Shown: positions 5,376 through 48,449 of the stretch, piece by piece
How the letters are laid out: each line of letters begins with the position of its first letter
Numbering within the stretch: the stretch's first letter is position 1
Assembly: GCA_021151625.1 (NCBI GenBank)
Contig: JAGKWY010000007.1
Span: 1,095-65,094 of the forward strand
DNA from: Gammaproteobacteria bacterium
Lineage (GTDB): Bacteria > Pseudomonadota > Gammaproteobacteria > Pseudomonadales > Cellvibrionaceae
Length of the DNA stretch: 64,000 bases
Reading direction: 5' to 3'
Notes under the pieces: generated by a model
Told to the model about the DNA's origin: nothing
Seen by the model: the letters and a program-made list of their open reading frames with translations, nothing else
The model's database searches: none
Translations under genes and position numbers: made by a program

Positions 5376-6275
5376 TCATTCCTTTAGCAGATGACCGCCC
5401 CACCCCAGTTTGGAGCGGCAGCGCTCATAGAAGTTGTAATCATTGGGATGAAGCAGCTGCAGTAGCTGCGGTTTTTTGCGGATACGAATTTCATCGCCAG
5501 TTTGTACATCCACATGGGAATGTCCATCGCAAGTGACCATGGGCTCTGCGCGATTATGCTCGCCCACAACAACAGTGATTTCGCTGCTGCCCGCAACTAC
5601 TATCGGCCGGCTACTCAGGGTATGGGGATTCATGGGCACCACAACTATGGCATCTAACGTGGGGTGCAATAAGGGGCCACCGCCACTGAGGGAATAAGCT
5701 GTTGAACCGGTGGGCGTAGAGACAATCACCCCATCAGAGCGCTGACTGGTGACGAAGACGCCATCCACGCTGATTTCAAATTGCAGCATATGAATGAATT
5801 GGCCGGGGTGAAGTACCACATCATTGAACGCATCGGCAGTGGCGATTAGTTGGCCATTACGAATCACTTCCATATCCAGCAAAAAGCGCATTTCCGAAAT
5901 GTAATCACCCGACAGAACTTCATCGACCTTGTTTTCAATATCTTCTGGCGTGATATCCGTTAAAAACCCGAGACGCCCGCGGTTAACCCCCAATAAGGGC
6001 ACATTATATTTCGCCAGCGCACGTGCACCGCGCAACAGGCTGCCATCGCCCCCCACCACTATCACCAGGTCACACACTTGCCCCATGGCTTCCATGTCCA
6101 TAATGCGTTGGGCAGCCTTAACTATACCGGCATCGCAAACCAGGGCAGCAGTTTCCGCTTCCAACACAAAATTCCTGCCGCGTTTTTGCAGAAAGCGAAT
6201 TAACCGTTTTATGGAGTAAACCGCGCGCTCGTTATTGAGATGGCCAATCAGGCCTATCGTTGAAAATTGAGTCAT
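5376..6275 (-). CDS. nadK: NAD+ kinase
   Basis: VVGGDGSLL and NRGRLGFLTD motifs, about 299 aa. Its stop is 1 nt from the downstream start. Confidence 0.95.
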   Translation of the reverse strand: MTQFSTIGLIGHLNNERAVYSIKRLIRFLQKRGRNFVLEAETAALVCDAGIVKAAQRIMDMEAMGQVCDLVIVVGGDGSLLRGARALAKYNVPLLGVNRGRLGFLTDITPEDIENKVDEVLSGDYISEMRFLLDMEVIRNGQLIATADAFNDVVLHPGQFIHMLQFEISVDGVFVTSQRSDGVIVSTPTGSTAYSLSGGGPLLHPTLDAIVVVPMNPHTLSSRPIVVAGSSEITVVVGEHNRAEPMVTCDGHSHVDVQTGDEIRIRKKPQLLQLLHPNDYNFYERCRSKLGWGGHLLKE

Positions 6276-6382
6276 AAATCATCCACTGCGTCAGCGGTTA
6301 TAGTGAGCCGGCTAGCTCAGGTAAGATCACCAGGTATTTCAGGCTATTATAGCCAGCGAAACCCTCACCGGGATGTAACTTT

Positions 6383-7390
6383 ATGCAGCCACCTTACACC
6401 AAACCCAGCAACAGCTCCCCCAGCAGCGCTAATCCCGACAACACCAATCGCACAAACCTGCACAGGCTGCAACAGCAATCTGTGCGCGATCTGGCCTGGT
6501 GTTGTTTTAGCGCCCCCATGATGCAAGAGCTACCCGGTTGTAATGCACACATACTGCCGCTTGACAACCAATCGCTGTGGCCATGGCTGCAGGCACTGGA
6601 CCAACAACCCAAACCCTTGCTCGATCATTTAGCCCAGCTTAAAAGCACACGGCTGGGTATCTATTACGAAGCCCTTTGGCACTTCTATTTTGCCAATCAC
6701 CCGCAATGGAAGTTGTTGCAGCACAACCTGCAAATTGATCGCGCTGGCATCACCCTGGGAGCCTTCGATTTTTTATGTCAGCACGGCGATGAATACTGGC
6801 ACATTGAGACAGCGGTAAAATTTTATTTATGCAGCACCCGCAACCCGCTGGAAGCTTACGAATGGAAATACTGGATAGGTCCGGAGGGAAAAGATCGGTT
6901 GGATTTAAAACTTAATCATCTGCGTCAACACCAATTGCCCTTGCACCAGACTGCCGAAGCAAGAGAGCCACTAGCAACCCTCTATCCCACTGTGAATCAC
7001 TGGAACACTGGGCTGTGCCTGCAAGGATATTTATTTTCGCCTGCGCAGCATCCAAGCCAACCTGCATTCAGCCACACTTCCCACGCCCATGGCGCCTGGT
7101 GGTACGCCAGCCAATTCCTTGCGCAACTTGCAGAAAAAGAAACCGGACACTGGCTGGTGCTGGAGCGTAAACGCTGGTTATCACCAGCACAAACAGAAGG
7201 CGTTGAGCAACTGCTAGGCAATGATCAACTTGCAGAAAAAATCCGGGAGGAATTGATAAGCTCTGCACGCCCGCTCCTAATTGCAGCGATGGCAAAGCAG
7301 AGCGATACGAAAACTGAATGTTGGATCGAAACCGAACGTTTGTTTGTGGTTGCTGATGACTGGCCGACTAATCTGTCCGACCCGGCATAG
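6383..7390 (+). CDS. Conserved hypothetical protein (DUF1853-like)
   Basis: 335-aa ORF divergent from nadK, as in Pseudomonas synteny. Motif FDFLCQHGDEYWHIETAVKFYL. The family name is from memory only. Confidence 0.5.
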   Translation: MQPPYTKPSNSSPSSANPDNTNRTNLHRLQQQSVRDLAWCCFSAPMMQELPGCNAHILPLDNQSLWPWLQALDQQPKPLLDHLAQLKSTRLGIYYEALWHFYFANHPQWKLLQHNLQIDRAGITLGAFDFLCQHGDEYWHIETAVKFYLCSTRNPLEAYEWKYWIGPEGKDRLDLKLNHLRQHQLPLHQTAEAREPLATLYPTVNHWNTGLCLQGYLFSPAQHPSQPAFSHTSHAHGAWWYASQFLAQLAEKETGHWLVLERKRWLSPAQTEGVEQLLGNDQLAEKIREELISSARPLLIAAMAKQSDTKTECWIETERLFVVADDWPTNLSDPA

Positions 7391-38130: not shown

Positions 38131-38162
38131 CCCATTGGTAAATTTACTGAGGTTAAGTGTCA

Positions 38163-38960
38163 ATGAAATCATTATTTTTCCCCGCGCTCGTCTCCCTAAT
38201 TGCATTTAACGTGTCAGCCCAGGAAGGCGGACCTGGTGACGGTCCCCAAGGGGAACCACCACGCTGGGGGGTGGGCCTTGGCGCTATTCTGAATGACAGC
38301 CCCTATGCAGGTGAAGGCACACGTGTTCTGCCAATTCCACTACTAACCTACCAAGGCGAAAATTTTTATTTCCGTGGAATTACTGCTGGCTGGACCTTTA
38401 CCCGCAGTGAATCCTTCGAATTATCCGCCATTGCGAAATTCCGCTTTGATGGATTTTCAGTGGATGACTTGGGCAAAGAAGAGCTCGCCAGCAACGGAGT
38501 TTATTATCAATTGTTAGAAGACCGTGATTTTGGATTAGATGCAGGTATGAACCTGAAATGGAGTGGAAGTGCTGGCGAAATAGAAGTGGAATTACTTGCC
38601 GATATTACCGACACCAGCGGGGGTCAAGAGGCATCTATTCAATATGGCTACCCCATGCAATTGGGTGGCGGAATGCTTACACCGAATGCAGGCGTGACCT
38701 GGTTGTCAGAAGATATGGCTAATTATTATTACGGAACACTGGATGAAGAAGTTGCGCGAGGCGTAATTAATTATAAACCTGGCGCCGTTACCATTCCCCA
38801 TGTTGGAATTAATTACTTTCGCCCATTTGGCAATAACTGGTCGCTGATGACTACCGTGAAATACAGTATGTTACCAGACGAAATTCAGGATAGTCCTTTT
38901 GTTGAAGCCGATACAAGCGGATCAGCGTCAATTCTGATTGGCATTGCAAAAGGATTTTAG
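38163..38960 (+). CDS. MipA/OmpV family outer-membrane protein
   Basis: Signal peptide, then WGVGLGAILNDSPYAGEGTRVLPIPLLTYQGENFYFRG, typical of MipA beta-barrels. C-terminal aromatic residue. Confidence 0.85.
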   Translation: MKSLFFPALVSLIAFNVSAQEGGPGDGPQGEPPRWGVGLGAILNDSPYAGEGTRVLPIPLLTYQGENFYFRGITAGWTFTRSESFELSAIAKFRFDGFSVDDLGKEELASNGVYYQLLEDRDFGLDAGMNLKWSGSAGEIEVELLADITDTSGGQEASIQYGYPMQLGGGMLTPNAGVTWLSEDMANYYYGTLDEEVARGVINYKPGAVTIPHVGINYFRPFGNNWSLMTTVKYSMLPDEIQDSPFVEADTSGSASILIGIAKGF

Positions 38961-38962
38961 CA

Positions 38963-40480
38963 ATGAATATTTTTACCAGCATCGCGATTTTTTTTACCGT
39001 GTGTACTATAACGGCCTGCGGTAGCGACTCCAACTCTTCCAAGAGTAACAAGACGGAGATAAAAGCCGGTGAAAAACTTTTTCACCAGGCTTTTGCAAAA
39101 ACTAACGGAAGATCTTGCGCAAGCTGTCATGTGGCTGAAGATAATTTTGCACTTACACCAGCACACGTGATGCGATTGTGGAATACCAACCCCAATGATC
39201 CTCTATTTGCTGCGATAGATGCGGACGATCCCACCGCAGAAGTGCTCACATTTGAGCACTTGAAAAAGGGATTGGTGCGCGTTCCATTAACCTTACCTGC
39301 GAATATGGATGTGATTGATGACCAGGGCAATGTCATTACTCCGGGGGATCGCACAATCACAGTGTGGCGCTCAGTCCCATCGATTGCCGATGTTGCAATA
39401 ACAGCCCCCTATCAATTGGATGGTCGGGCAACCACTCTGGAGGAGCAGGCACAAGGGGCCGTTACTGGTCATAGCGAAGGCGGCGATATTACACAACAGG
39501 AGTTAACACAAATCGCCGCTTTTCAGCGCAGTATTTTCACATCCGATCGATCCTATGCTGTCGCTGACATGCTAAAACTTGGGCTAAGCAGCAACCTGAT
39601 TCCGGATGTAGAAAGTGAATTATCATTAACCGAAGAAGAGAGACGAGGTCGCACGGTATTTGACGCCGTATGCGCAGCCTGCCATGGCGGTGTGAACAAG
39701 GCCACTATTGTTGATCGTGAAGTTCATGCGCAATCCTTCCCTGCCCTAAAACCCGACGGCACGGTTATTTATCAAACACCAACAACCAATCCTCCAACGG
39801 CTGTTTTAGCACCGCAAACACAGAATGAATTTATCAATGTTGGTTCGGCGGTTGAGAATTATCTGGTTCAAATAGGTGCGACAGAGCACGAAAGTTTTAC
39901 CAGGGATGTAGAATTTCCTCAATATCGTTTCCGGTTTTACACCGATGCGACCCGCAATCAAATTGTTGCTGATTTACCGCCCGCACCAGATGCCACAGAC
40001 AATAATCCAGCTTGCGGCGGCAATGACAATCAAGGTGGGCCTGACGACAATCCAGATGGCAATCCAGACGGCAATCCAGACGGCAATCCAGACGGCAATG
40101 GCGACCCCAATAATGGGGCAGGTATTCTGACACCGGTGTTTGATGCTGATTGCAACCCCGTGCATGGTCCAAATTTCACACCACAATTATTTACCACCGA
40201 TCCCGGTCGCGCGGCAATTACCGGCAACCCTTATGACTTTGAAGCACTCGATATTCCAACGCTTCGCGGCATATCAAAAACCGCACCTTATTGGCATAAC
40301 AATATTTCCAATACTCTGGAAGAAGTTGTAGATCTCTACAGTGATCACTTATTAGCTAAATATCCATCACTCACTCTCGAAGGCGAAAAAGAAGAGGACG
40401 ATGATGGAGATACAGGCCCACAGGAATCGCTTACCGCTCAGCAAAAAAGTGACCTGGTTGCTTATCTCAAGCGACTTTAA
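38963..40480 (+). CDS. Di-haem cytochrome c peroxidase-family lipoprotein with PDGN low-complexity insert
   Basis: Lipobox ITAC and two CxxCH sites (CASCH, CAACH). Also a CCP/MauG-like C-terminal region (TAPYWHNN). Confidence 0.7.
   Translation: MNIFTSIAIFFTVCTITACGSDSNSSKSNKTEIKAGEKLFHQAFAKTNGRSCASCHVAEDNFALTPAHVMRLWNTNPNDPLFAAIDADDPTAEVLTFEHLKKGLVRVPLTLPANMDVIDDQGNVITPGDRTITVWRSVPSIADVAITAPYQLDGRATTLEEQAQGAVTGHSEGGDITQQELTQIAAFQRSIFTSDRSYAVADMLKLGLSSNLIPDVESELSLTEEERRGRTVFDAVCAACHGGVNKATIVDREVHAQSFPALKPDGTVIYQTPTTNPPTAVLAPQTQNEFINVGSAVENYLVQIGATEHESFTRDVEFPQYRFRFYTDATRNQIVADLPPAPDATDNNPACGGNDNQGGPDDNPDGNPDGNPDGNPDGNGDPNNGAGILTPVFDADCNPVHGPNFTPQLFTTDPGRAAITGNPYDFEALDIPTLRGISKTAPYWHNNISNTLEEVVDLYSDHLLAKYPSLTLEGEKEEDDDGDTGPQESLTAQQKSDLVAYLKRL
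40049..40096 (+). repeat. 4 x 12-nt tandem repeat (AATCCAGA[T/C]GGC) encoding (NPDG)4
   Basis: Four consecutive 12-mers, three of them identical, inside the peroxidase-like CDS. Confidence 0.9.
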
Positions 40481-40598
40481 ATAGTTATTAACGACTCAGT
40501 GGGATCAGCAGAAGGTGAAGCTTATGAAGTTGAATTCCTAATTCATATTGGCATTTCGCGCGGGTTTTGAATGCTACGAGCAATACCATGAAAAACAA

Positions 40599-40634
40599 AA
40601 AGCTGCTGACAGGTTTGTATCTGTCAGCAGCTTT
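40599..40634 (-). terminator. Perfect 14-bp hairpin, probable terminator at the distal end of the cassette array
   Basis: AAAGCTGCTGACAG-gtttgtat-CTGTCAGCAGCTTT, followed on the minus strand by TTTTGTTTTT. The GTTTGTA loop resembles the attC core motif of the array. Confidence 0.6.
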
Positions 40635-40698
40635 AGTGAAAGCGACTTAACTTATGTTCGTCACTATCCATTACACTGAATCAAGAAGGGAAGTCTTT

Positions 40699-41190
40699 TT
40701 ATATACGAATTTTACTGTAATGTAGTTCATTGAAAGCAGCACCGTTTTTATAAATAGCTTTTTCCAACACTGCGTCTAAACGATAACCGCATTTCTCCAA
40801 CACCTTTGCAGAGACCCTATTATCTTCTATCACGGAGGCATACAACCGGATGAAATTAGTATTTTCAAATATCAATTGAGTAAATTTCTCTAGCGCCTGG
40901 GACGCAATCCCCTTACCCCAATAAGGCCTTGCAACCCAATAGCCTATTTCTGCAGTTCTCTGCCGCTCAAATTCACCCGGAATAGCGCCAATTGTGCCGA
41001 CCAATATTCCATCGCTAACAATTGCATAAACAACACCAATTTTACTGCCTGTATTTACCCACCAACGTGCAGATTCATTAGTATATGGTTGAGGAATTCT
41101 TGCTGAGAGAAACCGTGTTAAAGATTCGTCATTCAAGTACGAAACCAACAATTCTTCATCCTTTTCTTCAAACTCTCTAAACTCTAACAT
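40699..41190 (-). CDS. GNAT N-acetyltransferase (RimJ/RimL-like)
   Basis: EFREFEEKD...YWVARPYWGKGIASQAL...N.VSAKVLEKCGY pattern. ATG at 41190 with GGAG 7 nt upstream. Confidence 0.8.
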   Translation of the reverse strand: MLEFREFEEKDEELLVSYLNDESLTRFLSARIPQPYTNESARWWVNTGSKIGVVYAIVSDGILVGTIGAIPGEFERQRTAEIGYWVARPYWGKGIASQALEKFTQLIFENTNFIRLYASVIEDNRVSAKVLEKCGYRLDAVLEKAIYKNGAAFNELHYSKIRI

Positions 41191-41294
41191 TATTACTCCA
41201 ATAAGATCCTTATATAACAACATACCTTATTCAGGATTAGCGGTAGTATTGTACATAAATCGCCAGTCTCTCTTCCCAACGCTGAACGTCAACA

Positions 41295-41753
41295 TCAGGT
41301 TGCTTGCACCACCGTAAATTTTAATTTAGGCAACATTCTTTTCTGGGGCTCGCTATATACCTCCCCTACTTTTAATGCTCCCTTTTTTAAATAAAAACCT
41401 TCTGCATCAGGATCAGAAATAATGTAAAACTCTGCTATCTCGAGCGTTTTGCATTCTGCGAGAATCTGCTCAAAAACCAAATTGCCGTAGCCTTTGCCAA
41501 TGGCTTTTGGCAATAACCAAAAATGATCAAGCTCATCAGTATCACCCTTAACTAACGCAAAGAACCCAATCACTTCTGATTCCGCCATAACCAGCTTGAC
41601 TGTGTTACGAGCAATATATTCATCTTCAAATGTTAAGTTAGCGCGCCATTGCTCAAGCTGTTCTTGAGAATAACCCCAGTAACCTTTTGATGCGATCAAT
41701 GTATCTCTGAGAAGCTCGGCATGCCTTGCTTCTGCATCTATAAAATGGAGCAT
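41295..41753 (-). CDS. GNAT N-acetyltransferase
   Basis: 152 aa with acetyl-CoA loop LPKAIGKGYGNLVF. Confidence 0.8.
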   Translation of the reverse strand: MLHFIDAEARHAELLRDTLIASKGYWGYSQEQLEQWRANLTFEDEYIARNTVKLVMAESEVIGFFALVKGDTDELDHFWLLPKAIGKGYGNLVFEQILAECKTLEIAEFYIISDPDAEGFYLKKGALKVGEVYSEPQKRMLPKLKFTVVQAT

Positions 41754-41899
41754 GTATTTACACCTGGCGAAGCCATTGCAGCGTTCAGCCGCAGTTTGTT
41801 AGCTGACATTTTGCGGAACACTTTTGCACAAAAACCCGCAGGATCACCCCTAGTTAAACAAAGGCACAAAAGCTGCAACAACATCAAAACAATTTGTTA
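41754..41899 (-). repeat. Degenerate attC-like spacer after the HD-domain cassette
   Basis: Ends in AATTTGTTA, with the ORF stop TAA inside it. Contains TTCAGCCGCAGTTTGTTAGC, which matches the 44804 site arm. The GTTA-side core is not recognisable. Confidence 0.35.
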
Positions 41900-42421
41900 T
41901 ACGCTTTCTAAAACCTTCATACTAGCCGCAAAACGGCTAACATATATTTTTTCCAGGTTTTCGTTTGCCACGAAACATTTAGATGCCACTTGATACGACC
42001 ATTCTAAATATTCAACAACTCTTGCTCTATCCCAATCAGGCGGAATACTTGCAACGTTACTGCAATGATCGGCAAGTTTTATTAGTTTTACCTCCATTGA
42101 CGCCGCAGAAATATGCCTTAACTGCGCCTCACGCCTTTCTGAAAGAGATAAGGTTTTATCATCCGTTACCGATTCAATATAAAACAAGACCACCTGGCCA
42201 AATTCCTCAAGCAGGGTTTCCTTTTGTATTGCTGTATCTTCGAGAACATCATGCAGGATTGCTGCTTCAAGCACTCGGCAGTCATTTATTTGAGCATACT
42301 CTGACAATAGGTAAGCAACTTCGATTAGATGATTAATATAAGGTGCACCACCATCTCCTTTACGCTTTTGATCTTTGTGGGCAATCGAAGCTATTGATAG
42401 CGCCTTCAGTAATTTATTCAT
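41897..42421 (-). CDS. HD-domain hydrolase, RelA/SpoT hydrolase type (cassette-borne)
   Basis: IAHKDQKRKG...PYINHLIEVA...ILHDVLEDT. 174 aa. Confidence 0.75.
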   Translation of the reverse strand: MNKLLKALSIASIAHKDQKRKGDGGAPYINHLIEVAYLLSEYAQINDCRVLEAAILHDVLEDTAIQKETLLEEFGQVVLFYIESVTDDKTLSLSERREAQLRHISAASMEVKLIKLADHCSNVASIPPDWDRARVVEYLEWSYQVASKCFVANENLEKIYVSRFAASMKVLESV

Positions 42422-42432
42422 ATACGATCTCT

Positions 42433-42537
42433 AATCAGAGCTTGGTGCGCAACACTACACTCAACTGCAACTTGTAAGCTGTGTATGCGATGAACTTTAC
42501 GTTGCAGACATTAATTTTTAACTACAGTCGCTTGTTA
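42433..42537 (-). repeat. attC-like site (decayed core: CTCTAAT instead of CTCTAAC)
   Basis: Ends in CGCTTGTTA. The internal pairing CTGCAAC-TTGTAAG / CTTTAC-GTTGCAG shares the TTGTAAG/GTTGCAG motifs of the clear sites. It lies 12 nt from the HD ORF start. Confidence 0.5.
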
Positions 42538-42613
42538 TGGCTTGGAGAGTTAAATTAGTGTGAGCACTATACAATCAAATATCAATACGAACACAGCTAG
42601 CATTTATAAAACT

Positions 42614-42871
42614 CTATTTTTTAGCATTTAATGCAATAACTATTATTGCTAGAAAACCCAAGGGAACTGTGATTATTGCCAAATAACCTAGTGATACCAT
42701 TACTTCTACAACTGAATTAAATGAAGAAAATGCGCAACCACGTATACCGGCCGCCCCACTACTACAACCTAGAGCTGCACTTAATATCGCTGCTATTACC
42801 ATGCTAATTAGTGGGCTAATTGCTAATAGCAAAATTATACCTATAGCACCTTTCCTTGAATCAGATCTCAC
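42614..42871 (-). CDS. Small membrane protein (cassette ORF)
   Basis: 85 aa with three hydrophobic segments. GTG start with AAGGAG 6 nt upstream. Confidence 0.5.
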   Translation of the reverse strand: MRSDSRKGAIGIILLLAISPLISMVIAAILSAALGCSSGAAGIRGCAFSSFNSVVEVMVSLGYLAIITVPLGFLAIIVIALNAKK

Positions 42872-42987
42872 TCTCTACTCCTTATTTAATTATCCATAAC
42901 GAATGATATGAACTCCCACTCTAAACACGCAGTACGGTGCTGGCGTAAAGTTATCGGTGCTATCACAACCACCGGAGGAGCAACTTC

Positions 42988-43262
42988 ATGAATCTTACAA
43001 CACTCAGTATTGATTTGGCGAAAACTTCCTTTAGCCTTGCCGGCAAGGATCAACACAGAAAAATTGTAGTGTGCACTACTATCAAGTGAAATTCGAGCTA
43101 TGGCCAATAAGCGAAACCGAGTGCAATTCAGTGCAGACCGGGATGAAGAAACCTTACAAGAAACTCGTCGAGCAGGGTAAGCACAGGAAAGTTGCACTTA
43201 CTGCCTGCATGCGAAAGATGATGACGATTTTGAATACCATGGTGCGGAATAATTGCGAGTGA
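42988..43262 (+). pseudogene. Internally deleted IS110-family transposase remnant
   Basis: GGAGG-ATG, then MNLTTLSIDLAKTSFSLAGKDQHRKIVV (IS110 N-terminal signature) and an early stop. Downstream, YKKLVEQGKHRKVALTACMRKMMTILNTMVRNN matches the IS110 C-terminal signature. The catalytic middle is missing. Confidence 0.7.
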
Positions 43263-43278
43263 TAAGCCAACTAAATTT

Positions 43279-43318
43279 GCGTTGCAGGTATTGATTTTTT
43301 TACCGCAGTCGCTTGTTA
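43279..43318 (-). repeat. Partial attC arm abutting the IS110 remnant
   Basis: GCGTTGCAGGTATTGATTTTTTTTACCGCAGTCGCTTGTTA is about 80% identical to 42498-42537. The ORF stop TAA lies inside the TTGTTA end. Confidence 0.5.
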
Positions 43319-44125
43319 GCTTTGCTCAGACTCCACTACAACTACTACATAGTTAACATTTACGGACTGTTCTGGATTCTGTTTATTTAGAATATCTCGA
43401 ACATATTGTGGCGGCTTGTCGCGCACACCCATGACTGGTTTTTCAATCTGATTTTCAGTCCTAGTGCGCCTTCTATGAGTGACTATACCCATACCTGAAG
43501 TTAATAACTTCCAAACGCGTTCAGGAAGCGTGTAACCGCCATAGCCAGAACAACAAACTAAACAATGCCAAGGGTATGCTCCTTGTATAACTGACGCCAG
43601 ATCATTTTTTCCATTTTTTTGAAGCAACTCAATATGAGCTAGAGAAGTTATTGAACAACCATAAGACTCTGACACATGTCCAAATGTACGACACCTCGAT
43701 ATTGAATTAAGGAACTTTGGCTGAGAATAAAGATAAAAACAATACAAAGGAACAAGACCATCTTTTTGACATTCTCTCTTAAGCTTACTCAATTGATAAG
43801 TTTTTGCTTTTCCAGATTTGTAGTGAAGATGAGAAAATGTGTTTGATCCAAGATGAAGAATTTTTGCCTGTACGCGAACACCAAGCCATTTTGATTTTGC
43901 TACATCAGTAAACCACCACTCCCAATCAGCGCCATTTATACCTTCTTGATGCTTGCTAAAATTATGGGAAAAAACCTCTGTGGAATGCCTATCTTTTAGC
44001 TCAAGAATATTTATGTCAGTGAAAGTTTCTTCAAGTGGCTGATGTCCAACACGACGAGCGCGTCCGATTTGATCAAAGGTTCGAAAAGCAAGCAATCTAA
44101 ATGTTTCACACAGTGTGTTATGCAT
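43316..44125 (-). CDS. Cassette ORF, hypothetical; possible Mrr/PD-(D/E)xK-like nuclease fold
   Basis: 269 aa, ATG start. EGINGADWEWWF followed about 20 aa later by LGVRVQAKIL (a D...QxK pattern as in Mrr-type catalytic domains). Cys-rich middle and basic tail. The fold call is inference only. Confidence 0.6.
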   Translation of the reverse strand: MHNTLCETFRLLAFRTFDQIGRARRVGHQPLEETFTDINILELKDRHSTEVFSHNFSKHQEGINGADWEWWFTDVAKSKWLGVRVQAKILHLGSNTFSHLHYKSGKAKTYQLSKLKRECQKDGLVPLYCFYLYSQPKFLNSISRCRTFGHVSESYGCSITSLAHIELLQKNGKNDLASVIQGAYPWHCLVCCSGYGGYTLPERVWKLLTSGMGIVTHRRRTRTENQIEKPVMGVRDKPPQYVRDILNKQNPEQSVNVNYVVVVVESEQS

Positions 44126-44148
44126 AATTAATACTTTATTTTAATAGC

Positions 44149-44273
44149 TAACGCCGTGCTCAACGGCAGTTTGTAAGCGCGGCTTAGTGAATTACTTTTG
44201 CGCAGCAAAACCACAAAGCCGCGACTTACAAACTGTCCAGCGCACGTAGTGCGCGAGTTGCAGCACTTTGTTA
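44149..44273 (-). repeat. attC recombination site (125 nt)
   Basis: TAACGCCGTGCTCAACGGCAGTTTGTAAGCGCGGCTT ... AAGCCGCGACTTACAAACTGTCC ... GAGTTGCAGCACTTTGTTA. Long imperfect palindrome with unpaired bases on the 3' arm. Confidence 0.85.
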
Positions 44274-44275
44274 CA

Positions 44276-44782
44276 TCATTCGTATTTCTTCGCAAGATAT
44301 TTCACAAGGTTATGCCAGCGATCTGCATTTGACTCAATAAGCTCATAAGATTTTGGATGAGAAACATTCAAGAATATTAGATATGTTTTACCCACTTCAT
44401 AAGCTCCATATGCATTACAGTCTCCAGCCAGCTCACCATTTCCAGCTAATGAGCTTGCCCAAAAATCGAGACTTTCATGAGCGGAGAAGTCTGAATCAGC
44501 TCTGGTTTTTTGAGAAAAACCAAGCAGGTTAAAATTTATTGGTTCTCTTTGTTCGCGGGCATAAGGATTTATATAAAAATTAATGATCTCGAACTCAAAC
44601 TCTTTTAATGAATCGAACCGTGCCTTTTCCTTAGGAATTCTCTCCTTTACCGCTTTGGCCAATACGACACCGTCTGAAAGAAAGAACATTCTATCGGGAT
44701 TCAAAAAATACCGCTCAGGAGGGGAATAGCAAGCGTAGCTACTATATGAAAGTAGCATGATCATTAATATTAAGTATCTCAT
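44276..44782 (-). CDS. Cassette ORF, secreted hypothetical protein
   Basis: 168 aa with signal peptide MRYLILMIMLLSYSSYA. No recognised domain. Confidence 0.6.
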   Translation of the reverse strand: MRYLILMIMLLSYSSYACYSPPERYFLNPDRMFFLSDGVVLAKAVKERIPKEKARFDSLKEFEFEIINFYINPYAREQREPINFNLLGFSQKTRADSDFSAHESLDFWASSLAGNGELAGDCNAYGAYEVGKTYLIFLNVSHPKSYELIESNADRWHNLVKYLAKKYE

Positions 44783-44803
44783 TTCGTCCTCTGACTGCTG
44801 ATG

Positions 44804-44937
44804 TAACGTTCGGTTCAGCCGCAGATTGTAAGCGGCGCATTTACGATAAACTTCGCGCAGCGATTCGCTAAATGCGCTGCTTACAATCTGTCGAGCGTAA
44901 GCGCGAAGCGCTGGAGCGGTGTTGCAACCGTTTGTTA
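44804..44937 (-). repeat. attC recombination site (134 nt)
   Basis: TAACGTTCGGTTCAGCCGCAGATTGTAAGCGGCGCATTTA ... TAAATGCGCTGCTTACAATCTGTC ... GTTGCAACCGTTTGTTA. The upstream ORF stop lies in the terminal TTA. Confidence 0.8.
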
Positions 44938-45270
44938 TGTGATTTTACATTTTTGAAGAGCCATTGAAAAAGCCTGATTGCTTGTCTGCACAATACTACC
45001 ACTCTTTTCCTCGCACGAAATCCAGTGCGAAACGCCTGATAGAGAAAAGCTCTTTTCAGATTGTAATTGCAGCTCAGTTAGTGCTTGAAACACACGATGT
45101 AATATTTCATTGGCGTCTCTCAATAGTCTGGGATTGGTAACGCCTGCCCCCTTAAATTCATACGATTCTCTAGACATTACCGTTAGTTGGTGCCCATAGC
45201 TAAGCAAAAGCAAAGCCTTCTGGTTCGGATTTCGCTTATCAAGTTCTATTTGTATTTCTTCATTTTTCAT
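44935..45270 (-). CDS. Cassette ORF, hypothetical protein (111 aa)
   Basis: The ATG at 45270 (MKNEEIQIELD...) lies 14 nt from the attC core. The longer track ORF runs into the attC site. Confidence 0.5.
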   Translation of the reverse strand: MKNEEIQIELDKRNPNQKALLLLSYGHQLTVMSRESYEFKGAGVTNPRLLRDANEILHRVFQALTELQLQSEKSFSLSGVSHWISCEEKSGSIVQTSNQAFSMALQKCKIT

Positions 45271-45283
45271 ACTTGATTTCACA

Positions 45284-45391
45284 TAACGCCGCGATAAACG
45301 GTGGTTTTTAAGTTGCACTTTTGCCGTAAAATGAAGCGAAGCGGAATGGCAAAAATGCAACTTAAAAACCATCCGGTTGATTGCTTTGTTA
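45284..45391 (-). repeat. attC recombination site (108 nt)
   Basis: TAACGCCGCGATAAACGGTGGTTTTTAAGTTGCACTTTTGCC ... GGCAAAAATGCAACTTAAAAACCATCCGGTTGATTGCTTTGTTA. Near-perfect long palindrome with extra T and G on the 3' arm. Confidence 0.85.
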
Positions 45392-45402
45392 GAGCACTTA
45401 CT

Positions 45403-45840
45403 TCACAAGGCCAAATATAAATATAGCTTTTCCATGGGTATTCCCTTAATTCTTTGGCAAGGTTCATTTTCAGAAAACCCAAAGGAAAGCCAAAATGGTT
45501 CAGATGTGTACGGCTCACACTCGACTTTGACTTTTTTTATGTTTCTGCTTATAGCGGAGTTTAAATAAAAGTCTACTAACAGTTTTCCCATTCCTTGCAA
45601 TCTATGTTTGGGGTGAATGGAAAGTATGTTTATTGTTTCATATGGCTCCCATCCATGCCACGCCAAAAAACCAAGCGCTTCAGCATTATATTCAATTACA
45701 TACAGTGAGTTTTCTTTGTGCGCATGAAGAATAACCTCCCAATTGCAAAAGAAACCTTGTCCTGTCGCTCTTTGTTCGGCTTCTAACCAAAGTAATAATT
45801 GATTTAAATGAGCTGCGTCAGGCGAAGTTATTATTTTCAT
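45403..45840 (-). CDS. GNAT-like acetyltransferase (cassette ORF)
   Basis: 145 aa from the ATG at 45840. SIHPKHRLQGMGKLLV acetyl-CoA loop. The track extension enters the attC site. Confidence 0.65.
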   Translation of the reverse strand: MKIITSPDAAHLNQLLLWLEAEQRATGQGFFCNWEVILHAHKENSLYVIEYNAEALGFLAWHGWEPYETINILSIHPKHRLQGMGKLLVDFYLNSAISRNIKKVKVECEPYTSEPFWLSFGFSENEPCQRIKGIPMEKLYLYLAL

Positions 45841-45852
45841 AAAAGGGAGCTC

Positions 45853-45978
45853 TAACGCCGTGCTCAACGGCAGTTTGTAAGTTGTGGTTTTGTGGATTAC
45901 TTTTGCGCAGCAAAACCACAAAGCCGCGACTTACAAACTGTCCAGCGCACGAAGTGCGCGAGTTGCAGCACCTTGTTA
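45853..45978 (-). repeat. attC recombination site (126 nt), near-duplicate of 44149-44273
   Basis: Identical ends and 3' arm to the 44149 site. One 5'-arm segment is replaced (GTTGTGGTTTTGTGG). Confidence 0.85.
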
Positions 45979-46019
45979 TGCTTTTTTATTTCCGATAAGC
46001 CAAAAATCGAATATTAAAA

Positions 46020-46367
46020 TTAAATATCAGGGTCTAACGGTAGTTCTTCAGCGATAAATTCACCATTTTCAGCTCTACCGAATGCCGAACCAATAGGCGC
46101 TGAAAGATATTTAATAATTTCTGGGTCATAGTTTGCGATAGTGTTAACGTCATAAATTTCTAGATTATTAGGCTCGTCTACATATTCTTGGCTCTCAAGC
46201 CCAGAAAAGAATCGCCATCCACTGTCGATTTCATTGTCTGGATTTTCTCGGTACATAAACCCAACTCTATTTCCATTAACGGTAATTTCATCCGTTGCGA
46301 TACACGAGCCGAAACCCAATGCAATATCTTTAAATTCATTCGGCTTTAGTAAATATTTTTTATTCAA
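46020..46367 (-). CDS. DUF2185-like small protein (cassette ORF)
   Basis: 115 aa. CIATDEITVNGNRVGFMYRENPDNEIDSGWRFFSG...IYDVNTIANYDPEI matches my recollection of DUF2185. TTG start 22 nt from a GTTATGC core. Confidence 0.65.
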   Translation of the reverse strand: MNKKYLLKPNEFKDIALGFGSCIATDEITVNGNRVGFMYRENPDNEIDSGWRFFSGLESQEYVDEPNNLEIYDVNTIANYDPEIIKYLSAPIGSAFGRAENGEFIAEELPLDPDI

Positions 46368-46388
46368 TTTGCGCTATCCTAGTGAGCA

Positions 46389-46521
46389 TAACATTTGTAT
46401 ACCGCGCATGCGCGTTATCTCTCCTAATAAAATCTCCTAGCACTTTTATCTAACCCTTTGAAAGCGATCAAATTGGTTGGCTCTTTTGGAGATTTTCCAG
46501 GGGGGAACAACGCGCATGCGC
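46389..46521 (-). repeat. attC-like imperfect palindrome built on CGCGCATGCGCG
   Basis: TAAC at 46389. CGCGCATGCGCGTT (46404-17) pairs with AACGCGCATGCGC (46509-21), and AAAATCTCC (46429-37) pairs with GGAGATTTT (46488-96). The TTGTTA-type end is not recognisable. Confidence 0.4.
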
Positions 46522-46680
46522 ATTAATATTCCAGAGCTTGCGCATTTTGCCGGGTGCTCTGGTACCTAAAGCGTTGAATATAGAAGGCTTTTGTGGCGAT
46601 TGGAAGAGGATACTGCGCAGTGTAAAGGAGATATACGCGCATGGGTGTTGGTTGAATGGCAATACACTGTATATCCAACC

Positions 46681-46703
46681 AAAAAAGGCGGCATTGCCGC
46701 CTT
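46681..46703 (-). terminator. Rho-independent terminator after the pectate lyase gene
   Basis: aaggcggc-att-gccgcctt hairpin followed by TTTTTT on the minus strand, 22 nt after the stop. Confidence 0.75.
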
Positions 46704-46724
46704 AAGTTGATTGCTGAAGATTAA

Positions 46725-48449
46725 TTACTGGAATATCGCCAGCTTACCTGCGCCTACATAGGTGGGCACCAGGGTTGGCAGGGAGGATGCGCTGTTGATG
46801 GTGTATTGGTAGTAGTCGCGCGGGTTAAAGGCTTGGCCATTATCTACGTGTAATATCCATTCAGCAGTTGGGCTAAATAATTTCACAATGTTGTCGTTGG
46901 TGAAAGTGACTTTTGCGCTTTGTTCACTGTCTTCACTGACTACGTAAAGCTCACCACTATCCACCAGAATATTATTCGCCTCCAGATACAACTCTGCCTC
47001 CGGACCCGCTAATGCGATATAAGAAATCTGACGCGCTGGGCCAGTGCGATCATTGAAAAAATAATTGTTATAGACATGTGCTTTACCGAAGCGCACGCGC
47101 GGGTGACGTTGATAGGTATTTTCAAAATAATTGTGATGGTAAGTCACATGCAAACGACCCGAGTCCTGCACTGCATTGCTATCCACATGCCCCAGCAACA
47201 TGGTTTTGTTGTAATGATAGAAATGGTTCCAGGAAACCGTTACCCAGTCGCCACCGCGTTTTACATCTACCGCACCATCAATACGACCGGCCAAACTGGA
47301 ATTGGGCGCACTGTAAATAAAAGTGTTGTGATCCACCCATACGTGATGAGAAAAACACTCAACGGTGATTGCGTCCGCATCGGGATTGGTGCCTGCATCA
47401 TATACATCGCGGAAGGTTAAATTGCGAATGATCACATTGGAAACATAATTATTATTCGCGTTGTAAGCATCCAGGCAACCGGTAGCACCGCCAATGCGGA
47501 AACCAATTTGACGCAGGTTTGCGCTATTACCTACACCCACAATCGTTTTGTTAGAAGCTACATTAAATTTTACGTAACCACTGGGAGGCTGAATATTGCC
47601 CTCCACCTGAATCACATAGGGCTCAACAGCCGTTACATAAGTTTGCAATTGTTCGAAGGTTGTTGCTCGCACTACTGCCCCACCCGCTCCACCGGTTGTT
47701 CCCGGAACCCCTAGCGCAGCAACAGTAGCAAAACCGGTTAATGAAAAATCCGGCTCTTCCGTAATGGGTACACTGGATGAAGAGCGACTGGAAATAAATT
47801 GTGTGGATGAACTCGCCAGCTGAATGGACGAACTACTGGAAGAGCTACTGAAAATACGACTGGAAGATTGTAGCGAAACAACAGAAGAGTTTATTGAAGA
47901 GCTGGAAGACTTGACTGAAGTACTCACAGATGAAACTACTGCCAGGCTACTGGATGTAGCCGCGCCGCATTGCGCAGCCACTGCATTGCCACTCACCGTG
48001 AGTGAATCGATATTAGCAATTTCTTGCGATCCGGTTGCACGCAAGCGCAATTGGTTAACACCCGCAGTAAAATTAATATTTTTAGTTACCGTACTCCAAC
48101 TAGCAAGCGACGCCGTGCGCGGAAAAGACAAGCTGCCTGATGAGCCATTTACCGTTAAGCCCGCACTGGTTGAACCTAGATTTGCATAACGAAAAGTTAC
48201 CGCATAACTTCCGGATGCAGGCACGCTTATTTGATAACTGATCCCCTGCCCGCCGGAATTATTGATATCGACATAACCCGCACCGGTATAGCCAGCATTT
48301 GCGCTACTGATAACACCGTCATAGCTGCAAAACCCTGGATCATTTTCCTGGATTGTAACGGCCGCATTGGCCAGCATCGGGATTGAAAGAGAAATCAGCG
48401 CCATAACAACCGCTGATGTATTTTTTATCTTCGCGATTTTTTTACACAT
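46725..48449 (-). CDS. Secreted pectate lyase (PL1) with N-terminal carbohydrate-binding module and Ser-rich linker
   Basis: Signal peptide, CBM6/35-like module and a poly-Ser linker. PL1 motifs HHVWVDHNTF, RIDGAVDVKRGGDWVTVSWNHF and RHPRVRFG. Confidence 0.9.
   Translation of the reverse strand: MCKKIAKIKNTSAVVMALISLSIPMLANAAVTIQENDPGFCSYDGVISSANAGYTGAGYVDINNSGGQGISYQISVPASGSYAVTFRYANLGSTSAGLTVNGSSGSLSFPRTASLASWSTVTKNINFTAGVNQLRLRATGSQEIANIDSLTVSGNAVAAQCGAATSSSLAVVSSVSTSVKSSSSSINSSVVSLQSSSRIFSSSSSSSSIQLASSSTQFISSRSSSSVPITEEPDFSLTGFATVAALGVPGTTGGAGGAVVRATTFEQLQTYVTAVEPYVIQVEGNIQPPSGYVKFNVASNKTIVGVGNSANLRQIGFRIGGATGCLDAYNANNNYVSNVIIRNLTFRDVYDAGTNPDADAITVECFSHHVWVDHNTFIYSAPNSSLAGRIDGAVDVKRGGDWVTVSWNHFYHYNKTMLLGHVDSNAVQDSGRLHVTYHHNYFENTYQRHPRVRFGKAHVYNNYFFNDRTGPARQISYIALAGPEAELYLEANNILVDSGELYVVSEDSEQSAKVTFTNDNIVKLFSPTAEWILHVDNGQAFNPRDYYQYTINSASSLPTLVPTYVGAGKLAIFQ

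Follow-up and report, generated by a model that had tools for sequence, protein, structure and literature searches.

The DNA analysed here is a stretch of 64,000 nucleotides (hereafter the window) from contig JAGKWY010000007.1 of a gammaproteobacterium of the family Cellvibrionaceae. Our subject is an array of integron gene cassettes that lies in it between a di-haem cytochrome c peroxidase gene (38963-40480) on the left and the pectate lyase gene pel1B on the right. The block between these genes (40489-46660) has a guanine-plus-cytosine (GC) fraction of 0.402, as compared to 0.476 for the remaining window and to 0.485 and 0.468 for the 10 kb on its left and right. The AT-rich character described in the initial annotation is genuine, but the drop is smaller than the 38% versus 52% given there.

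Nine credible open reading frames (ORFs) occupy the block, all of them on the minus strand. They encode three GNAT acetyltransferases, an HD-domain protein, an 85-amino-acid (aa) hydrophobic membrane protein, a DUF6615 protein, an Imm33 immunity-domain protein, and two proteins of 168 and 111 aa without an assigned family. The minus-strand row first described therefore stands, but not as at least ten ORFs without exception: nine are credible, and one fragment of an IS110-family transposase (IS, insertion sequence) at 43071-43262 is encoded on the plus strand. Promoter-like sites are depleted in the block, with 3 found as compared to 15.1 ± 3.7 in shuffled sequence.

Four attC sites and their family

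Between the ORFs lie four imperfect palindromes of 108-134 nt, sites A-D, all within 1.8 kb and exactly at the coordinates at which they were first delimited (Table 1). Each is bounded by TAAC and GTTA, as expected of the inverted core sites R'' (RYYYAAC) and R' (GTTRRRY) of an attC. All 27 integrase-linked relatives keep both motifs unchanged, apart from a single exception at one position. Sites A and D are 94% identical to each other. Stop codons adjoin or overlap TAAC, as had been proposed, and in cassette 3 the stop TAA falls inside the TAAC core. Start codons do lie close to the GTTA core, at a measured 16-27 nt past its G rather than at the 12-25 nt of the initial annotation.

Folding the sites as single-stranded DNA gave z scores of -5.9 to -7.8, values that none of 200 shuffles equalled. 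The minimum-energy folds of A, B and D consist of a stem that pairs TAAC with GTTA, an unpaired spacer of 2-3 nt and a second stem. That of site C leaves the termini open, and its arms and extra base are visible in the alignment and in the covariance model described below. Single unpaired bases in the A, B and D folds occur only on the 3' arm of the plus strand, and in site C the alignment identifies the extra base as the G of the 5' arm. The strand bias claimed for these extra bases is thus borne out by the folds of three sites and, for C, by alignment and model. A side hairpin is present between the extrahelical bases in A, C and D, and in these three sites the second extra base is C; in the best-studied attC sites it is typically G.

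We scanned both strands of the whole window, with filters off, using a covariance model (R1) built from 27 attC sites of integrase-linked arrays outside the window and specific to this attC family. Sites A-D scored 95-145 bits on the minus strand versus 38-58 bits on the plus strand, and nothing else in the 64 kb reached E < 1 besides a fifth, degraded site (site G, discussed below). The four sites thus lie far above threshold in the kind of test that the initial annotation had put forward, here made with R1 and not with IntegronFinder's general attC model. Of 34 base pairs predicted in the 27-site alignment, 17 show compensatory changes. Its cells are paired in 95.4% of cases, versus 35-45% after a shift of the partners by 1-3 columns, and the observed covariation was reached by none of 500 shuffles. 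A search of the whole window against Rfam at the gathering threshold returned two tRNAs only and no attC match.

The same family is widespread in related bacteria. With a degenerate 29-nt pattern drawn from the 3' arm we found three matches in the window (0.00 expected) and further matches in 97 stretches of a species-representative genome collection, mostly from Cellvibrio and other Cellvibrionaceae, with further representatives in Shewanella, Alishewanella, Rheinheimera, Aeromonas and Pseudomonas. BLAST recovered 163 full-length attC copies (70-98% identity). Their similarity does not extend past the site borders, which fits recombination sites shared by unrelated cassettes. We examined the relatives' loci, designated here by L and a number, as 8-kb genome blocks. 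In twelve of them (L005, L014, L016, L022/L089, L027, L029, L054, L058, L063, L066, L080 and L099) a homologue of the integron integrase gene intI lies in the same block. Strands were compared in 11 loci, and in 10 of them intI is divergent from the attC sites; all four integrases tested against NCBIfam match the integron integrase family TIGR02249 (384-398 bits, cutoff 265). The relatives' arrays are dense and confined to one strand; L054, for example, carries 13 sites in 5.3 kb.

Imperfect palindromes of ~100-130 nt in intergenic positions are also what one would expect of dispersed elements between small genes, whether similar to repetitive extragenic palindromes (REP) and bacterial interspersed mosaic elements (BIME) or to miniature inverted-repeat transposable elements (MITE), and the initial annotation had named scattered REP-type repeats as the rival to its own reading. 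In the window, however, the full model with filters off finds no copy outside the block (none beyond 41.7-46.0 kb). The palindromes always occupy one strand, always follow directly on an ORF, and keep TAAC and GTTA invariant while their stems covary; elsewhere they form dense same-strand arrays beside integron integrases. We regard a REP- or MITE-like origin as extremely improbable. Sites A-D are genuine attC sites, as first proposed, and the evidence for this comes from three sides: a model trained on foreign sequences, the folds, and the integrase-linked relatives.

The attI region and the missing integrase gene

Beyond the first cassette, the array borders on a region (46389-46681) that is homologous to the intergenic stretch between intI and attI of complete integrons. 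Over 303 nt it shares 73.6% identity with positions 3895-4189 of L022, which lie directly upstream of the L022 intI start; the corresponding part of L054 can be aligned with it as well. An attI core, (GA)TAACGCGCATGCGCGGTATACAAATGTTA, is found ~290 nt upstream of intI in L022, L054, L027 and L029, and the window copy is 100% identical to that of L027 over 33 nt. Conservation among the loci stops right after GTTA (46392-46389), and this places the crossover point G|TTA at 46392/46391. By homology, we identify 46389-46681 as the attI platform of a former integron.

Three GCGCATGC boxes in this region are probably integrase-binding sites; we propose this putative role by analogy with attI1, which contains direct repeats. 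Between the second and the third box lies a long hairpin (z = -6.5) that is present in L022 and L054 with some compensatory differences. The segment 46389-46521, which the initial annotation had listed as a decayed attC, was considered both as an attC and as an ORF-less cassette and rejected: it reads GTTR...YAAC, is conserved in the attI region of integrase-bearing relatives, and corresponds to the attI-region hairpin. The segment 46508-46650 can also fold with paired CAAC/GTTG ends. An Rfam search of 46300-46760 ranked by E value gave one chance microRNA match only.

The region also contains a candidate promoter, Pc, whose two hexamers are invariant in a four-way alignment of the attI region; a TATAGT/TATATT box with a TT-rich hexamer upstream stands at the same place in L029, L059, L060 and L093. 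From its sequence and orientation, TTCCAA-17-TATATT would be a cassette promoter that points into the array. Closer to the former integrase gene, at 46681-46667, lies a degenerate LexA-box-like element, TGGTTGGATATACAG in both the window and L022. L027 and L029 carry a perfect LexA box (CTGT-N8-ACAG) a short way upstream of intI, as does the integrase-less L093 at the corresponding position. This pattern suggests that the integrases are under SOS control, which one sub-lineage has relaxed.

Homology to the attI region ends at 46681, ~30 nt short of the expected intI start, and the region is joined there to the T run of the pel1B terminator; the ribosome-binding region and intI itself are gone. 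A terminator does stand at this border, as the initial annotation had it, but the array does not abut it directly, since the attI region lies between. In tblastn searches, IntI1, XerD and the IntI of the Cellvibrionaceae locus L022 revealed no integrase or integrase remnant in the 64-kb window, which extends for 17 kb beyond the attI end of the array and for 40 kb beyond its other end. That the IntI1 query works is shown by its 100% match to L058. The earlier statement that the window holds no tyrosine recombinase is thus confirmed with three queries.

Cury et al. (2016) termed a cluster of attC sites lacking an integron integrase a CALIN, and listed four origins for such clusters, intI loss among them (PMC4889954). 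One of the other routes is the insertion of cassettes at a secondary, non-att site, which would give a CALIN that never had a platform; it is described in PMC4889954 and, reportedly, in bioRxiv 10.1101/2022.09.11.507474. Such an insertion would not bring along ~290 bp of intI-attI homology, including the part nearest intI, and we consider it very improbable here. The retained attI region instead points to intI loss among the four origins.

The loss is not recent. A 2.5-kb metagenome contig (L105) is 93% identical to the window over 2430 nt, encodes a pel1B protein that is 97% identical, and has the identical junction between terminator and attI region, so that the two lineages must have separated after intI was lost. 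L105 is shorter by ~110 nt in the interval from the second to the third box, where the hairpin is deleted, and has 5 mismatches in the attI core. It differs from the window immediately past GTTA, where ~60 nt are available in L105. Metagenome DNA scans for the junction and for the attI promoter block found nothing. Exact-protein look-ups recovered short or broken contigs of the same strain only (L001, L002 and L108), and those for pel1B and for a 225-aa oxidoreductase gave no matches.

Nor is it the only such locus. The attI core occurs without intI in the upstream 1.5 kb in L093, L060, L059, L025 and L062, and an intact IS110-family transposase has inserted at the attI region of L098, which lies beside a flagellar gene. 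These loci, the window and L105 lack intI, and L022, L054, L027 and L029 have it. Apart from the junction that the window and L105 have in common, the breakpoints all differ, and the losses are therefore independent. Two genomes contain both kinds: Cellvibrio sp. NN19 carries the complete L054 and the integrase-less L060, and Cellvibrio sp. ARAG 10.3 carries L029 and L059. Complete and integrase-less platforms can thus coexist in one cell.

We also compared the surroundings of the platform. The source of the window is a Cellvibrio: its pel1B protein is 81-97% identical to pectate lyases of that genus, including C. fibrivorans and C. japonicus pel1B. Orthologues of 81-84% identity in L100-L103, which are long Cellvibrio contigs, and in L106 and L107 are followed by unrelated genes and by no integron. 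None of the other flank genes of the window has a clear counterpart on these contigs, the response regulator giving only paralogue-level matches (29-34%). No gene beyond intI in ten integrase-bearing loci recurs in another of these loci or in the window.

Could the integrase gene have been moved rather than lost? Rearrangement is among the CALIN origins listed by Cury et al. (PMC4889954). An inversion or translocation that broke the locus between attI and intI would have brought the array and attI next to pel1B and left an intact intI elsewhere in the genome, making the element one half of an integron that still works. The position of the breakpoint, exactly between attI and the intI start, would suit such a split, as would the finding that NN19 and ARAG 10.3 each have an intI-less attI platform in addition to a complete integron. 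In both of these genomes, however, the complete integron keeps its own attI, and the intI-less platform is a second copy. In addition, the junction is common to a 93%-identical lineage and so records an old event, and intI is absent from the 17 kb of the window beyond attI and from the 40 kb at the opposite end. We judge a split integron unlikely, at odds well below those of a deletion in place.

A further scenario, compatible with deletion of intI, is that the platform is still active as a satellite whose cassettes are exchanged by an integrase acting in trans. The window and L105 share their junction and differ right after the attI GTTA, the attI core matches perfectly that of L027, which keeps intI, and the four proximal attC sites are intact, decay being distal only. 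The difference from L105 could instead be explained by decay, given ~60 nt of sequence beyond attI, a ~110-nt deletion and 5 core mismatches. The presence of both kinds of platform in each of two Cellvibrio genomes speaks for the scenario; against it, the genome of the window has no known integrase, and both metagenome scans for further copies of the junction or of the attI region were empty. We hold this scenario to be possible but doubtful. The same holds for its extension to the genus, in which intI-less platforms that keep attI, the cassette promoter and intact proximal attC sites would be recurrent and maintained in Cellvibrio as secondary docking sites, served in trans by the integrase of another integron in the same cell. 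That tentative view would explain why most platforms lack intI, why two genomes carry two platforms, and why the window and L105 diverge past attI.

Cassettes, decayed sites and flanking genes

Table 1. Features of the cassette array and its borders (positions in the window; R1, covariance model of the attC family; z, fold z score)
Feature	Position	Strand	Remarks
Terminator facing the peroxidase gene	40599-40634	minus	strong intrinsic terminator, 14 pairs and T run; closes the minus-strand gene row
Second terminal GNAT gene	41223-40699	minus	Pfam GNAT; no attC
First terminal GNAT gene	41753-41295	minus	Pfam GNAT; no attC
HD-domain ORF	42421-41897	minus	Pfam HD_4, E = 1.3e-11
Site G	41899-41774	minus	follows the HD-domain ORF
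85-aa hydrophobic ORF	42871-42614	minus	GTG start
Site F	42537-42450	minus	follows the 85-aa ORF
Filler	42872-43106		stretch left of the IS remnant
IS110-family 3' end remnant	43107-43275	plus	left side truncated; ~170 nt left
Cassette 5	43276-44151	minus	DUF6615 ORF 44125-43316 and 5' half-site E
Cassette 4	44152-44806	minus	168-aa ORF 44782-44276 and attC D
Site D	44149-44273	minus	R1 127.6 bits, E = 1.1e-31
Cassette 3	44807-45286	minus	111-aa ORF 45270-44935 and attC C
Site C	44804-44937	minus	R1 95 bits, E = 6.5e-23
Cassette 2	45287-45855	minus	GNAT acetyltransferase ORF 45840-45403 and attC B
Site B	45284-45391	minus	R1 105 bits, E = 1.3e-25
Cassette 1	45856-46391	minus	Imm33 ORF 46367-46020, TTG start, and attC A
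Site A	45853-45978	minus	R1 145.5 bits, E = 1.6e-36; z = -7.8
Retained intI-attI intergenic region	46389-46681	minus	~290 bp; homology to relatives
GCGCATGC boxes (three)	46650-46636, 46525-46511, 46417-46403		in the attI region
Long hairpin	46404-46437 and 46488-46521		34-nt arms, between second and third boxes
Candidate promoter Pc	46577-46605	minus	-35 TTCCAA 46605-46600, 17-nt spacer, -10 TATATT 46582-46577
pel1B terminator	46685-46703	minus	8 pairs, 6 of them GC, and T run
pel1B, pectate lyase gene	46725-48449

Among the five cassettes, three encode products with a Pfam match: Imm33 in cassette 1 (E = 6e-35), Acetyltransf_10 in cassette 2 (E = 2.4e-9) and DUF6615 in cassette 5 (E = 4.5e-14). 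The cassette 3 ORF has no Pfam match, and the cassette 4 protein begins with a signal-peptide-like N-terminus. Three ORFs of the window have homologues that are carried on cassettes in other loci; the Imm33 homologue of L015, for instance, is 54% identical and has attC sites on its flanks. None of the cassette proteins matched a defence system in PADLOC, and known resistance genes are absent among the window cassettes as judged by Pfam and PADLOC.

Cassette 5 ends in a half-site. Site E consists of the 5' arm of an attC only, from 43318 to ~43276, where it is interrupted by the remnant of an insertion sequence; the segment 43279-43318, once listed as a partial site, accordingly contains a real 5' arm and no more than that. 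The remnant is 86.9% identical over 198 nt to L082 6988-7184, and the L082 ORFs beside the matching end carry the domains PF01548 and PF02371. The IS110-family element of L082 has the coordinates 6186-7184. The same 5' arm, TAACAAGCGACTG..., stands beside the same IS end in L082, L090, L012 and L077. The same-strain metagenome contig L001 ends at window position 43004, as expected because of the repeat there. At the attI of L098, the inserted full-length transposase (L098:1631-2671) belongs to a different IS110-family element. It looks as though insertion sequences that target attC or attI have been active in these arrays. An IS1111-attC group of IS110-family elements, reportedly set out by Tetu and Holmes in 2008, is said to target attC sites. 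The window element resembles this group by position, its 3' end, assigned to the IS110 family by the Pfam domains of its relatives, lying inside attC E; it differs from the group in being reduced to ~170 nt.

Beyond the IS remnant the array is degraded. Site F starts with TAAC and has a recognisable 3' arm, and it ends in GTTG instead of GTTA; R1 gives it 9.5 bits (42448-42539, E = 7), and it has no stable fold (z = +1.27). The segment 42433-42537, one of the decayed or partial sites of the initial annotation, therefore fails as an attC site in both model and fold, and site F is a hybrid or decayed attC. The 85-aa ORF that precedes it has a homologue in L079, 69% identical and followed by an attC. 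Site G is marginal (R1 at 41774-41890, 18.6 bits, E = 0.026): its GTTA core now reads CAAT, and its fold is no better than shuffles (z = -0.8). Like F it does not pass, and we read it as a decayed attC within the segment 41754-41899 that the initial annotation had listed.

The last two ORFs of the row, both GNAT genes, have a cassette-like GC fraction of 0.39-0.41. As nearest homologues they have ordinary genes without flanking attC sites (77% in L064, 75% in L052); a more distant homologue (64%, L091) is a cassette. A generic scan of 40481-46700 for YAAC...GTTR hairpins revealed no hidden attC of another family. The two genes may lie outside the array. Just past the stop of the GNAT gene 41295-41753, at 41277-41294, is the sequence GTTGACGTTCAGCGTTGGG, which resembles the L' and R' part of an attC 3' arm; this short match may be all that is left of an attC belonging to the gene. 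Locus L064, from a Cellvibrionaceae metagenome-assembled genome, also contains an intI fragment (L064:6659-6852, approximately residues 13-107) beside a cassette and an attC. The 77% homologue of the GNAT gene 41295-41753 lies there as an ordinary gene 2 kb from this fragment, on its intI side.

On the left, the array is separated by its closing terminator, which faces the 3' end of the peroxidase gene, from a gene that had been taken for a core gene. Its best homologues are only ~64% identical and come from Myxococcota, with no close orthologue in Cellvibrio, and that description has to be withdrawn. Horizontal acquisition is probable for the peroxidase gene itself, jointly with the MipA gene (38157-38960). 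Within the peroxidase gene, five tandem repeats of 12 nt (40028-40111) encode PDGN.

A probable relic of a chromosomal integron

The block contains at least two clustered attC sites, and the 64-kb window holds no intI gene or pseudogene, the combination by which a CALIN is defined; the arrangement of a complete integron, with intI adjoining attI and the array, is absent. The initial annotation had left the choice between a CALIN and the relic of a decayed integron. The second description is the better one, as ~290 bp of the intI-attI region survive and intI has been cut away. We therefore read the locus as a CALIN that is the relic of a Cellvibrio chromosomal integron and that was formed by deletion of intI, and put the probability of this reading at roughly 85%.

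The course of events would be as follows. An ancestral chromosomal integron would have comprised intI, attI, a promoter and a minus-strand array of cassettes. Its intI would then have been deleted in place, rather than moved by a rearrangement, and what remains are five promoterless cassettes, four with intact attC sites and the fifth interrupted by an insertion sequence, followed by two ORFs with decayed attC sites. The recombining form of these sites would be the folded bottom strand, here the plus strand of the window. In this form the TAAC/GTTA pairing would constitute the R box and the second stem the L box, with the unpaired spacer between them, and the extra bases on the 3' arm would mark the strand for the integrase. 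Lacking an integrase in cis, the array cannot shuffle by itself; its cassettes would remain substrates for a compatible integrase from elsewhere in the cell. Most likely they are still transcribed from the retained promoter region.

Several points weigh against this reading. No ancestral state with intI beside pel1B was found: the flanks of the relatives' integrons differ, and the pel1B orthologues are free of integrons. An intI may survive elsewhere in the genome after a rearrangement between attI and intI, a prospect to which, as set out above, we give a low probability. Only four attC sites are clearly intact, and F and G do not pass, which leaves 40.5-42.5 kb as a decayed array at best whose terminal GNAT genes are perhaps not cassettes. 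Moreover, R1 is specific to one family rather than a general attC model, and a strict scan for consensus promoters did not call Pc, which lies below its threshold.

In integrons, the integrase recombines folded bottom-strand attC sites with attI or with another attC, and promoterless cassettes are expressed from a promoter of the platform (PMC4889954). Cury et al. found that 95% of CALINs have no recognisable intI pseudogene nearby; attI was left unsearched in their survey, being unknown for most integrons (PMC4889954). The window resembles these CALINs in that its cassettes are mostly of unassigned or accessory function and include no resistance genes. It differs from those surveyed in that its origin can be read, the attI region and the sequence upstream of intI having been kept and the breakpoint mapped. 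Orphan arrays are common, but with attI unknown for most chromosomal integrons, how they originated can seldom be read. Here, the attI and promoter region of the Cellvibrio type could be defined by comparison. The loss of intI can be placed to within a few bases, and it is older than the separation of two lineages with 93% nucleotide identity. Used as a marker, the attI core revealed further platforms without intI in 8-kb samples of other genomes. The element is of a kind already known, and the general picture of integrons is unchanged; what the locus adds is a view of how orphan arrays arise.

Among described cases, the nearest is that of Xanthomonas, where integrons located at ilvD have lost intI function repeatedly and in a lineage-specific manner, as PMC12444791 reports from Gillings et al. 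(2005). Measured against that summary, both cases concern sedentary chromosomal arrays of plant-associated gammaproteobacteria in which intI loss predates lineage divergence. The window differs from it in genus and in attC family, and in a position that is variable among the sampled Cellvibrio rather than fixed at ilvD. Its intI has been wholly removed, whereas the summary has that of Xanthomonas left as a pseudogene.

A second comparison links these arrays to a mobile one. L058, from Pseudomonas sp. NY11955 (NZ_JBLUPS010000013.1), is a class 1 integron with an IntI1 that is 100% identical to the query and with blaIMP-1 as first cassette (1545-2411); the encoded protein matches PDB 7xhw over all 246 residues (554.8 bits, E = 2e-166). 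Over its full length, the attC of this cassette shows 81% identity to site A; it shares the side hairpin of that site and belongs to the attC family that dominates the Cellvibrio arrays. Despite its extra hairpin, the blaIMP-1 attC is excised by IntI1, IntI3, IntI2*179E and SonIntIA (PMC3053210); by homology with it, sites A-D are predicted to be recombined by an integron integrase. The blaIMP-1 cassette, found in class 1 and class 3 integrons, is mobile and clinical and encodes a carbapenemase, whereas the window cassettes are without known resistance or defence genes. The shared family hints that the recombination site of the blaIMP-1 cassette originated in environmental gammaproteobacterial hosts such as these.

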